DNA from: a virus
IMG/VR virus record: IMGVR_UViG_3300048113_001121
Location: 96,001-160,000 of that record
DNA: 64,000 bases
Reading direction: 5' to 3' (one strand)
The position numbers and the translations under genes are program-made. Every line of letters starts with the position of its first letter. Positions within the stretch are counted from its first letter, which is position 1. The notes beneath the pieces were generated by a model. It did no database searches. It was not told the DNA's origin and saw only the letters and a program-made list of their open reading frames with translations. Positions 4,193-7,480 of this stretch are shown here, piece after piece.

Positions 4193-4804
4193 ATGAAATA
4201 CAAATTAGAAGTTTACGGATGGTCAATGGAGGCGATGGGACATTCATTAAATGACCAACAATTAGAGGATGTAGATATCCTTATGAAAGACAATAACTGT
4301 GATGAACTATGGCAGATTAGGTCTGAGTTAGAAGACGTTGTTGACGATATGTGGGGTCCCGATTTATTTCATATGAATGCACCCTTTTATAACGGTAGTA
4401 CGTTCTTTAGAGTTGTAGATGAAAATGAAAAAGTAATTTTAGAATTTGATGAGAAAGATTTGGGTGACTTATATGAAAATGTTGAAGATGTTGATGATTT
4501 ATACCCCTATGAATCCCATTTCGCATCACCTAATTACCGTAACGATGGTGTTAAACATATTATGTTAGTTGTTGATGAAAATAAAGGTGGATTTTGTGAA
4601 ATGTTATTTGAATCTGACGAGGAACTTAAACCTGAAGATTTTTCTGTAATGGGAGGCGGTATTGATACACCTTTAGGTGAATGGGATTTTATCTCACGTA
4701 TTTTCTTTAAAGATACCCTACTTGAGATTGACGATTGGTTAGATAATCGAGGTAAAGCGGCAACATTAGAGATTTATGCTGAAGATGGGAGAATCATACA
4801 TTAA
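4193..4804 (+). CDS. Hypothetical acidic protein
   Basis: ORF track; in tandem with neighbours. Confidence 0.7.
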   Translation: MKYKLEVYGWSMEAMGHSLNDQQLEDVDILMKDNNCDELWQIRSELEDVVDDMWGPDLFHMNAPFYNGSTFFRVVDENEKVILEFDEKDLGDLYENVEDVDDLYPYESHFASPNYRNDGVKHIMLVVDENKGGFCEMLFESDEELKPEDFSVMGGGIDTPLGEWDFISRIFFKDTLLEIDDWLDNRGKAATLEIYAEDGRIIH

Positions 4805-4926
4805 TGAAACTAACTAAAATTAAATTAAATAATCAGAATCGTATGTTACGTATTGGTTTTGGTTTAAATAAAGGAAATAAATTCTTTAGAATTGATTTAT
4901 GGTGGATAGGTTACAGATTATCCTAA
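4804..4926 (+). CDS. Small hypothetical protein (40 aa)
   Basis: Manual translation MKLTKIKLNNQNRMLRIGFGLNKGNKFFRIDLWWIGYRLS*; TAATG overlap with the previous stop. Confidence 0.55.
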   Translation: MKLTKIKLNNQNRMLRIGFGLNKGNKFFRIDLWWIGYRLS

Positions 4927-4933
4927 AATAAAA

Positions 4934-4964
4934 TTTGACAATTGAAATAACTTAACTATATTTG
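4934..4964 (+). promoter_or_regulatory. Bacteroidota-type promoter upstream of the tRNA-array leader
   Basis: TTTG (4934-4937), 19-nt spacer, TATATTTG (4957-4964); matches the -33/-7 consensus TTTG...TAnnTTTG. Confidence 0.75.
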
Positions 4965-4997
4965 TAGAGTACAAACAAGTACAAAACTATTTTAAAA

Positions 4998-5069
4998 ATG
5001 AATAAACGAAACACACATAATATAATATTAAGAAACTTATCAAGGATAAGAATCTTTAGTGTTATGTGA
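4998..5069 (+). CDS. Putative leader peptide (23 aa, MNKRNTHNIILRNLSRIRIFSVM)
   Basis: A-rich context before the ATG; lies between the promoter and a terminator; rich in ATA/TTA/AGA/AAC/AAT codons. Confidence 0.55.
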   Translation: MNKRNTHNIILRNLSRIRIFSVM

Positions 5070-5122
5070 TAGTTCGGTAAAACATAATGTAAAAAATAGA
5101 CTTAAAGCTATGAAAAAGAAGA

Positions 5123-5155
5123 AGCCCGAACAGAGATGTTCGGGTTTTTTGTTTT
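5123..5155 (+). terminator. Intrinsic terminator or attenuator hairpin
   Basis: AGCCCGAACA-GAGA-TGTTCGGGTT followed by a T-rich tract. Confidence 0.8.
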
Positions 5156-5166
5156 ATATTAGCAGT

Positions 5167-5178
5167 GTTCTTTGACAT
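5167..5178 (+). promoter_or_regulatory. boxA-like antitermination motif GTTCTTTGACAT
   Basis: Identical copy at 6370-6381 and a variant (GTTCTTTGAAA) at the 5' end of the large ncRNA (55322-55332, minus strand). Confidence 0.5.
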
Positions 5179-5215
5179 CAAGATTAAGTAACGACACAGT
5201 ATTCGGTAAAATACT

Positions 5216-5288
5216 GACCTCTTAGCTCAGCTGGTAGAGCATCACACTTTTAATGTGAGGGTCCAGGGTTCGAACCCCTGAGGGGTCA
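5216..5288 (+). tRNA. tRNA-Lys(UUU)
   Basis: Acceptor GACCTCT/AGGGGTC; anticodon arm TCACA-CTTTTAA-TGTGA; T loop TTCGAAC. Confidence 0.95.
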
Positions 5289-5348
5289 CTATCGCCAATA
5301 CTAAATCGAGTTTTGCACCTCTACATAAAATATGGGTGTTTTCAACAT

Positions 5349-5422
5349 GGGGATGTAGCTCAGTTGGTTAGAGCAGGACTCTTATATGGTCAAGGTCGTA
5401 GGTTCAATTCCTACCGTCCCTA
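5349..5422 (+). tRNA. tRNA-Ile(UAU)
   Basis: Acceptor GGGGATG/CGTCCCT; anticodon loop CTTATAT (TAT at 5383-5385); T arm GTAGG-TTCAATT-CCTAC. Confidence 0.85.
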
Positions 5423-5498
5423 CAATTAAATTAATTTAATAAAATAGTTGTTACTTAATCATTTGTACCGTACATTTACAGTATTGAAAGATATAGAT

Positions 5499-5584
5499 GC
5501 CGAAGTGGTGGAATTGGTAGACACGAGGGACTTAAAATCCCTTGGACAGTAATGTCCGTGACGGTTCGAGCCCGTCCTTCGGTA
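5499..5584 (+). tRNA. tRNA-Leu(UAA)
   Basis: Acceptor GCCGAAG/CTTCGGT; AGGGA-CTTAAAA-TCCCT; long variable arm. Confidence 0.95.
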
Positions 5585-5587
5585 CAC

Positions 5588-5646
5588 AGATAGGGAGTTA
5601 TCCAATACGCGTTGGAACTAGATAACTTTAAAATAGAACCCTATCT
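5588..5646 (+). ncRNA. Small structured element in the tRNA array
   Basis: Nested stems AGATAGGG/CCCTATCT, AGTTATC/GATAACT and CCAA/TTGG. Confidence 0.45.
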
Positions 5647-5671
5647 TTTACATGTACCCAACATACAATTT

Positions 5672-5760
5672 AAGAGAGGTAGTGAAGCTACAATGATATA
5701 GAAAAAGGTAAGGGTTAACCTCTATATCGTAGTAACCCCGAAAGACCCGAAACCTCTCTT
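5672..5760 (+). ncRNA. Small structured element in the tRNA array, possible pseudoknot
   Basis: Closing stem AAGAGAGGT/ACCTCTCTT; inner stem GATATAGA/TCTATATC; loop GGGTTA is complementary to downstream TAACCC. Confidence 0.45.
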
Positions 5761-5766
5761 TTACAT

Positions 5767-5840
5767 GCACCCATAGCTCAGCTGGATAGAGCATCTGCCT
5801 TCTAAGCAGACGGTCTCAGGTTCGAATCCTGATGGGTGTA
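5767..5840 (+). tRNA. tRNA-Arg(UCU)
   Basis: Acceptor GCACCCA/TGGGTGT; TCTGC-CTTCTAA-GCAGA; T loop TTCGAAT. Confidence 0.95.
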
Positions 5841-5848
5841 CTAAATAC

Positions 5849-5964
5849 GGGGAGTTAGTCAAAGTGGTACGACGCTCCAACCTTAAGACAGAAAGCATCA
5901 TACTAGTTACTCGATGTGATTAAGTTGGTTAGTAGAGGTAGGGGTTCGAATCCCCTACTCCCCC
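5849..5964 (+). ncRNA. tRNA-like RNA with an enlarged anticodon-arm region
   Basis: Acceptor GGGGAGT/ACTCCCC, D arm GTC..GAC and canonical T arm AGGGG-TTCGAAT-CCCCT, but 65 nt between the D and T arms. Confidence 0.65.
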
Positions 5965-5965
5965 G

Positions 5966-6044
5966 CTCTTAGATAGGTTTAACAACCGAACAACGAGGCG
6001 TCAAATCTCACGCCTACAAGTCGAAAGACGGAGTCTAAGTGGAG
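5966..6044 (+). ncRNA. Small multi-hairpin element in the tRNA array
   Basis: CTTAGA/TCTAAG closes three hairpins: GGTT/AACC, AGGCG/CGCCT and GTC-GAAA-GAC. Confidence 0.45.
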
Positions 6045-6050
6045 TAATTA

Positions 6051-6292
6051 TACCGAATGGTGGAATTGGAAGACACGAGTCACTGTTAATGACTAATGTA
6101 TCACACATGATGAGAAATGGGGTAACATCCATAGTGAAAAGAAGGAGGATGAATTGCCCCTAGATTAATCATCTACTCAAGAATAGGTAAGAGTTTGTAG
6201 TACCTTAAAGATTTATTCCTAACCAATATTGTTTATACTCTATTGGGACATCCGTGACAGTTGTAGTTGGATAAAATAGACTGTTAACGGAC
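6051..6292 (+). ncRNA. tRNA-derived RNA (Leu-type D arm, GUU anticodon loop) with an ~160-nt structured variable-arm insertion
   Basis: GTG-GAATTGGAAGA-CAC D arm; AGTCA-CTGTTAA-TGACT; T-like stem GACAG/CTGTT; acceptor stem and T loop degenerate. Confidence 0.5.
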
Positions 6293-6362
6293 TTTTAGCT
6301 CAGTTGGTTAGAGCACCGCACTCATAATGCGTAGGTCGATGGTTCGAGTCCATCAAGGTCCA
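6289..6362 (+). tRNA. tRNA with CAU anticodon, most likely Ile2 (lysidine type)
   Basis: Acceptor GGACTTT/AAGGTCC resembles bacterial tRNA-Ile2; loop CTCATAA; paired first base pair and no initiator features. Confidence 0.85.
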
Positions 6363-6407
6363 CTAGTGAGTTCTTTGACATAAAAATTAAATTAAAAAAT
6401 AGAAATT

Positions 6408-6743
6408 ATGGAAATAACATCATTTATTTTAGGTGTATGTACAGTCATTGTATTAGTAATGGTTGTGGGTACGTTTGTGAACTATATGACAACAAAGTCC
6501 TTAAAAGAGGAAATAAACCGACTGAATCGAGAAAACGAAAATCAGTATAACGAATCTGAAAAGATTAAAAAAGAACTAATAGATTATGTGGATAGTCTAC
6601 ATAATATTAGTGAAAATAACATGAACGAAGTCTACCGTCATATTGACAGTAGAGTAGATAAAACTGTAAATGGTATGAGCGAACACGTTGCAGAAATTTA
6701 TAGACAAATAGATAGTAACAAAAAATCCGTTGTTAACGGATAA
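6408..6743 (+). CDS. Hypothetical protein with an N-terminal TM helix and coiled coil
   Basis: ORF track; embedded in the tRNA array. Confidence 0.7.
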   Translation: MEITSFILGVCTVIVLVMVVGTFVNYMTTKSLKEEINRLNRENENQYNESEKIKKELIDYVDSLHNISENNMNEVYRHIDSRVDKTVNGMSEHVAEIYRQIDSNKKSVVNG

Positions 6744-6872
6744 TAAATAAAACGTTAAAGAACTCACTTTTTAACTATGCACGAAAAAACCATCATTAGG
6801 TAACTTTTTTACACTTAATGTTGGTTTTTTCATGCATTTACCATATATTTGTACTCTAATAAAAAAACACTT

Positions 6873-7088
6873 ATGGGTAATATACTTAGTAAAATTGCAG
6901 ACATGGAAGAAGATGGTACACTACCAAAATTTAACCCTAACTATTATGTTGACGTTTTAAACTTAGCCAGAACGAAAGGACTAAGATTAGAGGTTATGTA
7001 TACAGCTATGGATATTGTTAGAGAGCAACCTAATTTAACTAATGAGGTCGCCATTATTCAATCGGCTAAAAAATGGAATTTAGTATAA
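6873..7088 (+). CDS. Hypothetical protein
   Basis: ORF track (TTG at 6849); ATG at 6873 preferred because it follows a TATATTTG promoter element. Confidence 0.6.
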   Translation: MGNILSKIADMEEDGTLPKFNPNYYVDVLNLARTKGLRLEVMYTAMDIVREQPNLTNEVAIIQSAKKWNLV

Positions 7089-7091
7089 AAA

Positions 7092-7165
7092 GCTTCCTTA
7101 GCTCAGTTGGCTAGAGCAGCTGATTTGTAATCAGCAGGTCGTGGGTTCGAGTCCCTCAGGAAGCT
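7092..7165 (+). tRNA. tRNA-Thr(UGU)
   Basis: Acceptor GCTTCCT/AGGAAGC; GCTGA-TTTGTAA-TCAGC; T loop TTCGAGT. Confidence 0.95.
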
Positions 7166-7180
7166 CAAAATTTATTTATT

Positions 7181-7480
7181 ATGAGTCTTAAAAAAATACA
7201 AGAGGAATATAGAGAAACACCAAACAAGGAGTTAGTTAGTGCTGTGTTCGATAATTTTATATTTGGTCTACTTGGGGCAATCTTAGTTGTCTTTATCGCA
7301 GAAAGAGTGGATATATTAGTACTTTTAGGGTATATGATTTACTACTTTTTCTTAGGGAGAGTTGTTAATAGACCTAAATACGTAACAAGTTTAGGTAAAT
7401 TTATTATATTTCCTGTACCAACCGCAATAGGGGCGTTTGTAGGATATAAATTGGCTTATTATTTAACACTTTTATTTTAA
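7181..7480 (+). CDS. Hypothetical membrane protein
   Basis: Three hydrophobic segments. Confidence 0.7.
   Translation: MSLKKIQEEYRETPNKELVSAVFDNFIFGLLGAILVVFIAERVDILVLLGYMIYYFFLGRVVNRPKYVTSLGKFIIFPVPTAIGAFVGYKLAYYLTLLF

Follow-up and report, generated by a model that had tools for sequence, protein, structure and literature searches.

What decides when a phage transcribes its own transfer RNA (tRNA) genes? Phage tRNA genes are usually viewed as codon-usage fixes or as replacements for tRNAs that are destroyed by host defences. The question is raised by positions 4934-5178 of a 64,000-nucleotide stretch of viral DNA, which we call the window and which comprises bases 96001-160000 of the single 198.8-kb virus record IMGVR_UViG_3300048113_001121 (32% G+C). 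This segment is the leader of a phage tRNA array. Judged from its sequence, it is probably a ribosome-mediated transcription attenuator, in which the translation of a short leader open reading frame (ORF) would gate the array. All leader-peptide attenuators described so far control biosynthesis enzymes or an aminoacyl-tRNA synthetase, whereas the downstream genes here are tRNAs. Leader-peptide attenuation itself is known; the tRNA-gene target and the sensing of many codons are the new elements, and no published account of such tRNA-gene control was found in full-text searches of the literature.

The leader module and its alternative folds

The original prediction had placed at this locus a Bacteroidota promoter, a 23-codon ORF, a GTTCGG strand complementary to CCGAAC in the 5' arm of a strong terminator, a competing GTTATGT/ACATAAT hairpin over the stop codon and a boxA-like motif, followed by the tRNAs. 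All of these features are found at the coordinates claimed for them (Table 1). The only part that did not hold is the tRNA status of an element with a GUU loop, which is described with the array below. The complementarity between 5072-5077 and 5126-5131 is exact. In the terminator, A/U pairs extend the stem to 14 pairs, followed by a U-tract at 5145-5155; the core alone was calculated at -14.9 kcal/mol and the extended stem at -22.9 kcal/mol. The promoter scores 11/12 as a sigma-70-like match, and its pattern (TTTG, 19 nucleotides, TATATTTG) occurs nine times in the window versus 3.6 expected. No promoter motif is present between the terminator and tRNA-Lys, where there is also no room for one; therefore, transcription of the array must pass the terminator.

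The same order of ORF, antiterminator and terminator is found before tRNA arrays in related phages, where the original prediction had proposed to look for it. Viral contigs were searched with a pattern that consisted of the two terminator arms and the 12-mer GTTCTTTGACAT only; the promoter, the ORF and the upstream copy of the terminator arm were unspecified. The search returned 31 viral loci. Pooled with earlier loci and the window, these gave 28 unique module sequences with 26 distinct leader ORFs. A promoter of the TTTG/TAnnTTTG type, equivalent to that of the window, precedes every leader for which enough upstream sequence is available. In all 26 distinct leaders, an ATG located 18-40 nucleotides after the -7 box is the start of an ORF with 23-34 codons. 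All 26 also carry a copy of the terminator 3' arm, exact or with one mismatch, in the form (A/G)GTTCGG(G) or as a G-U or shifted variant. This antiterminator strand starts between 26 nucleotides before and 5 nucleotides after the stop codon, and 33-61 nucleotides before the terminator. Shuffled leaders yielded a comparable ORF in 5-13% of trials, and the real type representatives in 10 of 10. By this comparison of sequences, the leader ORF is under selection, and its translation is predicted.

The upstream copy of the 3' arm belongs to this class of terminators. A 6-mer copy is present at 18 of the 24 boxA-linked terminators versus 3 of the 64 other terminators in the same DNAs (Fisher test, 6e-11). 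The hexamer lies in codon phase 1 in most families of leaders, in phase 0 in L050, in phase 2 in L038 and family C, and outside the ORF in the window's family. GTTCGG is therefore conserved as RNA and not as protein. The P values overstate independence because the leader sequences share descent; the retention of the module features in otherwise diverged leaders is nonetheless clear. A scan of bacterial genomes for the terminator with the 12-mer found only five genomes, all of them non-Bacteroidota and at least two with the match in ribosomal RNA (rRNA) operons, and it gave no host version of the module. The leader has no homologue in a nucleotide search of GenBank phages. Among deposited phages, only a distant Flavobacterium myovirus is similar at the nucleotide level, and it matches the window outside the leader.

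Leaders of the window's own family were found via a neighbouring protein of 203 amino acids and DNA patterns, and they fall into three types. L001, at 98% identity, belongs to the window type, and its ORF differs at only two sites, one a synonymous change (AAC to AAT) and the other a change from TGA to TAA that keeps the stop. In the L005/L011 type, a 13-nucleotide deletion at the tip of the ORF hairpin shifts the frame; a 26-codon ORF persists and ends 17 nucleotides beyond the start of GTTCGG. The ORF of the L009/L012 type likewise has 23 codons with the stop position unchanged, and about half of its residues differ. Kept in all three types are the promoter, the codon core ATA (ATA) TTA AGA, GTTCGG, the hairpin that encloses it, the AUAG/CUAU hairpin, the terminator and the 12-mer. 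The enclosing hairpin, which spans the stop codon, is retained in L011 and L012 as ATTATGT/ACATGAT, with one U-A pair changed to U-G. A window-type leader is also seen in L072, a marine metagenome contig with a coverage of 1.7, in which the promoter and about the first eight codons are replaced by unrelated sequence and the ATG is missing. Either chimeric assembly or natural recombination could explain this contig.

Folding of the leader RNA under constraint agrees with the geometry put forward in the original prediction, in which a ribosome at the stop codon masks GTTCGG and a ribosome stalled upstream leaves it free. The nascent RNA was folded from the start site to 5137, where the 5' arm and the loop of the terminator have been made and the 3' arm is still unmade. 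When no ribosome is present, the minimum-free-energy structure pairs 5072-5077 with 5126-5131. The GUUCGG-CCGAAC pairing persists when a ribosome masks 5007-5042 and disappears when a ribosome at the stop masks 5052-5081. Neither of the two hairpins of the window at 5014-5068 and 5059-5089 sequesters GTTCGG in the nascent-RNA folds; the latter appears in the fold with the ribosome masked mid-ORF. No conserved anti-antiterminator (1:2) hairpin was found across families, of which those other than the window's were not examined systematically. Untranslated RNA should therefore read through rather than super-attenuate.

Between the terminator and the first tRNA lies GTTCTTTGACAT, the boxA-like motif of the original prediction, which we read as an rrn-type boxA and a putative Nus site. 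The boxA of the E. coli rrn operons is UGCUCUUUAACAA. The 12-mer of the window occurs in identical form in rRNA operons, namely in the 16S-23S spacer of a Saccharibacteria genome (L066) and, in a Sphingomonas genome (L065), at a distance of 190 nucleotides upstream of the 16S rRNA gene. It also adjoins tRNAs in unrelated viral contigs, sometimes only 18 nucleotides before the next tRNA. A reading of GTTCTTTGACAT as a promoter -35 element was rejected, since elsewhere it lies 18-30 nucleotides before a tRNA or between tRNAs, with no space for a -10 element and a start site. Because it is located downstream of the terminator, the putative boxA would be no help to a polymerase at the terminator and would act on polymerases that are already through.

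Leader codons and the tRNAs downstream

In the window, nine of the 22 codons that follow the ATG had been counted as exact matches to anticodons of the array (ATA three times, TTA and AGA twice each, AAA and ACA once each), and this count is correct. The binomial P of nine matches is 0.019 against the coding usage of the genome; among the 657 small ORFs of the genome, only 1.2% have as many. With wobble pairing and Met included, 11 of the 22 codons match and all six tRNAs have a leader codon. The 11 matches have a P of about 0.01 against the gene background; taken jointly with the 6/6 coverage, they have a P of 0.0023 against random windows of real genes. The other two reading frames of the leader give six and seven matches. 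The codon argument from the window alone is therefore at most suggestive.

L009, the closest divergent relative, has an array with two extra genes compared with the window, Ser-UGA and Tyr-GUA. Its leader contains three Tyr codons, versus none in the window, and three UCN Ser codons, versus one in the window. The match is 18/22 with 8/8 coverage (binomial P=2.5e-6; about 1e-4 against random gene windows).

If the leader senses codons, leader codons should co-vary with array anticodons across related phages, as the original prediction pointed out, and they do. The clearest example to describe is L041 (=L029), in which the unit that the leader would gate comprises 12 tRNAs, bounded on one side by the leader and on the other by a T-run, a new promoter and a protein gene. 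Residues 2-24 of the leader peptide (L041:5115-5210, minus strand) consist of exactly the 12 amino-acid types of the unit, including Cys, Trp, His and Tyr. Under strict wobble rules, the array can read 20 of the 24 codons that precede the antiterminator. A second unit in the locus of this distant relative (L029:6187-6290), with tRNAs for Glu, Thr, Met, Met, Gly, Gly, Asp, Ala and Pro, is preceded by a promoter and the boxA 12-mer and is without a leader ORF or terminator, and thus gated and ungated tRNA units would coexist in one phage. Start Met aside, residues 2-24 of the L041 leader contain none of the Glu, Thr, Gly, Asp and Pro of this second unit, and Ala occurs once, at codon 25 beside the antiterminator.

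Comparable figures were obtained at the other loci with full downstream sequence, where the leader codons matched by the leader's own array number 25/27 in L037 and L051, 23/26 in L044, 22/26 in L055, 20/26 in L042 and 19/24 in L054. The families differ in parallel with their arrays. Family B has Pro and Ser codons in its leaders and Pro-UGG and Ser tRNAs in its arrays; the leaders of family C add Glu, Asp, Ala, Gly and Thr, and the arrays do likewise. When six family representatives were permuted, only 4 of the 720 assignments of leaders to arrays reached the observed mean own-array match.

The correspondence extends to the choice among synonymous codons. The ratio of Ile codons ATA:ATY is 9:3 in leaders before Ile-UAU arrays versus 2:50 before Ile-GAU arrays (Fisher test, 4e-7). 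For Arg, AGR:CGN is 6:1 versus 9:19, with CGN enriched where the array has Arg-ACG, and for Leu, TTR:CTN is 7:0 versus 10:13. In the coding usage of the window genome, which was taken as the AT-rich background, AGR accounts for three quarters of the Arg codons, and AGA is favoured. The correspondence is also confined within the leader. Upstream of the antiterminator, 183 of 244 codons match the array, versus 19 of 58 in the tail (Fisher test, 5e-9).

A proposed switch and its competitors

In the mechanism that we propose, transcription would begin from the promoter at 4934-4964, and a ribosome would translate the 23-codon ORF as RNA polymerase proceeds, unfolding the hairpin at 5014-5068 on its way. 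With fast decoding, the ribosome would reach the stop codon (5067-5069) and cover GUUCGG; the terminator hairpin (5125-5144) would form, and termination at the U-tract would leave a leader RNA of about 185 nucleotides. A ribosome that is delayed upstream, or that has never been loaded, would leave GUUCGG free to capture CCGAAC on its emergence, pre-empting the terminator. The candidate stall codons are those read by the tRNAs of the array, that is, AUA, UUA, AGA/AGG, AAA and AUG. The polymerase would then continue into boxA, where Nus factors would confer processivity through the structured tRNA genes. The net outcome would be a negative feedback, in which slower reading of the codons of the phage tRNAs results in more phage tRNA. 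Host anticodon nucleases as the trigger are a matter of speculation.

In its wider form, the proposal is that large Bacteroidota phages use a many-codon sensor of decoding speed, with about one leader codon per tRNA of the unit. Delay at any of these codons would let the polymerase past the terminator and, with the help of a boxA of host type, through the array. We lean towards this view, which would make the leader the first attenuator known for tRNA genes. If it is true, the phage measures the decoding of the codons that its own tRNAs serve and adjusts tRNA synthesis accordingly, and classical attenuation extends from metabolic genes to tRNA genes. Replacement tRNAs would be switched on at just the time when the tRNA pool of the host fails, as it might through cleavage by anticodon nucleases. 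The leader would also be a compact natural sensor of codon-specific translation speed, and its sequence alone would predict which tRNAs share one transcription unit.

The features by which attenuators are recognized are present here, namely a leader ORF, a terminator, an exclusive antiterminator, a stop codon placed for the ribosome to cover the antiterminator, and codons that correspond to what the operon supplies, strongly across the families and modestly in the window by itself. The trpL, hisL, thrL, leuL, pheL and ilvGMEDA leaders of enterobacteria likewise combine a short leader ORF, an intrinsic terminator and an excluding antiterminator. In both, the position of the ribosome would decide the outcome and the codons would name the limiting component, and the thr and ilv leaders, too, respond to several amino acids at once. 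Unlike the enterobacterial leaders, which control biosynthetic enzymes, the phage leaders precede tRNA genes in phages of Bacteroidota-type hosts. They contain one or few codons for each of 5-19 tRNAs instead of runs of one codon, and match particular anticodons (ATA versus ATT/ATC) and not only amino acids. A 1:2 hairpin conserved across families was not found in them, systematic examination having covered the window's family only.

Other known systems share single aspects with the proposed switch. The pheST attenuator of E. coli is also a case of leader-peptide attenuation of a component of the translation apparatus; however, it senses one amino acid through Phe codons and controls a synthetase, not tRNA genes. 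The boxA/Nus antitermination of rrn operons involves the same 12-mer in the transcribed leader of a stable-RNA operon, whereas the phage-borne boxA is located downstream of what would be a regulated terminator, before tRNA genes and once before a protein gene. T-box riboswitches likewise report the state of a tRNA through a conditional terminator in a leader. In contrast to the proposed switch, they bind one tRNA directly without a ribosome, control synthetase and amino-acid genes, and are found mostly in Firmicutes.

A number of observations weigh against attenuation by codon sensing. The antiterminator pairing in the window is only 6 base pairs (-9.6 kcal/mol), well below the stability of the terminator, whereas it is 7-9 base pairs in relatives (6-9 by another count). 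The terminator forms in every full-length equilibrium fold, and therefore the switch could act only kinetically. The consensus fold of four family-D leaders shows nearly no compensatory change (1 pair of 48). We know of no study of transcription-translation coupling in these hosts. With respect to the codons of the window, half of them have no phage tRNA (AAT, AAC, AAT, AAC, CGA, CAT, TCA, ATC, TTT, AGT and GTT), shuffling of the A-rich leader sequence itself puts the match of 11/22 at a P of only about 0.06, and the tRNA-Thr that is counted in the match sits behind its own promoter and ORF. The original prediction had itself cautioned that such codons are common in an AT-rich genome and that the antiterminator core has 6 base pairs; both caveats apply to the window taken alone. 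Covariation within the window's own family is thin because viral and metagenome collections hold only three leader types of it, the metagenome scan having added none. In several other families, the large tRNA sets would read 55-71% of ordinary codons, so that a high match is less specific there. A C-x-x-W-Y/F-x-R motif is common to the leaders of families A, B and E, and part of the leader similarity is therefore due to descent and not to independent matching.

One leader departs from the correspondence. In L057 (969-1136 and downstream), the leader is of family A and the array behind it is short, with tRNAs for Phe, Ile and Gln only (then Glu); the leader matches this array at only 7/24 codons. 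Most of the array appears to have been lost recently, whereas the leader has stayed as it was.

Several of these points would be accommodated by a general sensor of translation capacity that is blind to codons. Such a leader would report ribosome shortage or slow translation, and its codon likeness to the array would stem from AT-rich composition and descent. The half-matched codons of the window, the 6% of local shuffles that reach its match and the large arrays of some families are in line with this idea. So is the nascent RNA, which already forms the antiterminator without a ribosome, so that any failure of translation would lead to read-through. Nevertheless, we consider this explanation unlikely. 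It would not readily account for the switch of codon choice with the anticodon present (ATA versus ATY), or for the enrichment of CGN with Arg-ACG arrays although the coding usage of the window genome favours AGA. The sensor part of the L041 leader has almost none of the amino acids for which the unit lacks a tRNA, and the matching ends at the antiterminator; both observations also argue against a codon-blind sensor.

Somewhat more doubtful still is the explanation of the segment as a separate small gene or small RNA of about 185 nucleotides, either the mRNA of a micropeptide or a counterpart of the small stable RNAs of the T4 tRNA cluster, with the tRNAs expressed by constitutive read-through of a leaky terminator. 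The copy of the terminator arm at the end of the ORF, in three codon phases and also in non-coding sequence, is hard to explain without a switch, and the same is true of the codon-array correspondence. In favour of a small RNA gene, the leader has a strong secondary structure, with a z of -6.95 when the terminator is included and of -3.1 when it is left out; conservation is higher in the 3' half than in the ORF; and the terminator is far more stable than the alternative pairing of 6 base pairs. The peptide motif common to families A, B and E would suit a micropeptide; however, the leader peptides match no Pfam or PHROG family, and His and Gln exchange positions among the family-A leaders, both being always present, which fits a constraint on composition and not on position. 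Rfam, searched over 4700-7400, reported only tRNAs and a weak, sub-threshold match to MicC (E=0.12), which was disregarded.

Direct sensing of tRNA by the leader RNA, in which uncharged or intact tRNA would select between antiterminator and terminator as in a T-box, shares the outline of a leader, an antiterminator/terminator pair and a tRNA-related target, but it is highly improbable, since the Rfam search of 4700-7400 yielded neither a T-box nor any other riboswitch at E up to 1, the leader showed no sequence of a specifier loop or T-box, a single leader would need to read 5 to 19 different tRNAs, and the conserved ATG ORF with its stop beside the antiterminator would be left unexplained.

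The array and neighbouring elements

The features of the leader and of the array that it would control are listed in Table 1. According to ARAGORN, the whole genome has six tRNA genes, all in the leader/array region (Lys-UUU, Ile-UAU, Leu-UAA, Arg-UCU, Met-CAU and Thr-UGU). One more gene, which is tRNA-like and brings the number to seven, is recognized by Rfam.

Table 1. Positions of the leader elements, the tRNA array and the boxA copies in the window
Feature	Position	Strand	Description
Bacteroidota-type promoter	4934-4964	+	-33 TTTG 4934-4937, 19-nucleotide spacer, -7 TATATTTG 4957-4964
Leader ORF (translation predicted)	4998-5069	+	23 codons; TGA, then in-frame TAG; conserved core ATA ATA TTA AGA 5019-5030
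Imperfect hairpin within ORF	5014-5068	+	z = -3.1 without terminator; kept in D-family consensus fold
Stop-codon-spanning hairpin GTTATGT/ACATAAT	5059-5089	+	arms 5059-5065/5083-5089; GTTCGG in loop
Antiterminator strand GTTCGG	5072-5077	+	copies terminator 3' arm; begins 3 nucleotides after stop codon
Small spacer hairpin AUAG/CUAU	5096-5111	+	between antiterminator and terminator; all four pairs invariant, substitutions only in loop
Intrinsic terminator	5119-5155	+	CCCGAAC 5125-5131/GTTCGGG 5138-5144, A-tract and U-tract extension
Putative rrn-type boxA GTTCTTTGACAT	5167-5178	+	37 nucleotides before tRNA-Lys
Array, putatively gated	5216-6363	+	Lys-UUU 5216-5289, Ile-UAU 5349-5423, Leu-UAA 5499-5585, Arg-UCU 5767-5841, tRNA-like 5849-5964, Met-CAU 6289-6363
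Second exact copy of putative boxA	6370-6381	+	after tRNA-Met, 26 nucleotides before ORF 6408-6743

The tRNA-like gene (39 bits in the Rfam tRNA model) has intact acceptor, D and T arms, and an insert of 35 nucleotides makes its anticodon arm a long hairpin. A homologue in L012 (5963-6090) carries another insert, and its extended stem pairs as well (UUAA/UUAA in the window, AAGCC/GGCUU in L012). The gene is absent from L001 and L011. The window gene and its L012 homologue suggest, by their sequences, a conserved non-canonical tRNA-like RNA.

The element that the original prediction had connected with the Asn codons of the leader is a different one, located before tRNA-Met. A stem-loop with a CUGUUAA loop does exist at 6077-6094. 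However, neither Rfam nor ARAGORN, including the relaxed and intron modes of the search, calls a tRNA at 6054-6288. The 5' half of the tRNA-like element (6054-6094, GUU loop 6085-6087) is found in the window only, close relatives having no counterpart of it, and the loop of L011 differs from GUU although the leader of L011 also has four Asn codons. The proposed Asn/GUU link was therefore rejected. L001 and L011 have conserved the spacer 6070-6288, which may represent a decayed tRNA or a small RNA of no called family.

Between tRNA-Leu and tRNA-Arg, the window carries an insertion of 113 nucleotides relative to L001 (5644-5756). On both sides of it are direct repeats of 17 nucleotides, in which the first bases of tRNA-Arg are included; these repeats suggest that a duplication or an insertion took place within the array.

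The tRNA-Thr gene (7092-7166) probably belongs to another transcription unit. It begins 3 nucleotides after the stop of a 71-codon ORF (6873-7088), and the segment 6845-7166 has its own -7 box near 6845; the ORF and tRNA-Thr thus make up one short unit of a protein gene and a tRNA.

The second copy of the putative boxA lies directly before a protein gene, which is unusual. The 111-amino-acid ORF behind it (6408-6743) has a weak match to Rz-like spanins, and the arrangement of 12-mer and ORF is kept in L011, L012 and L013. On the upstream side of the leader, an ORF of 40 amino acids (4804-4926) overlaps the stop of the preceding gene (ATGA). It matches PHROG 38838, of unknown function, with E=1e-8, and is probably a real small phage protein.

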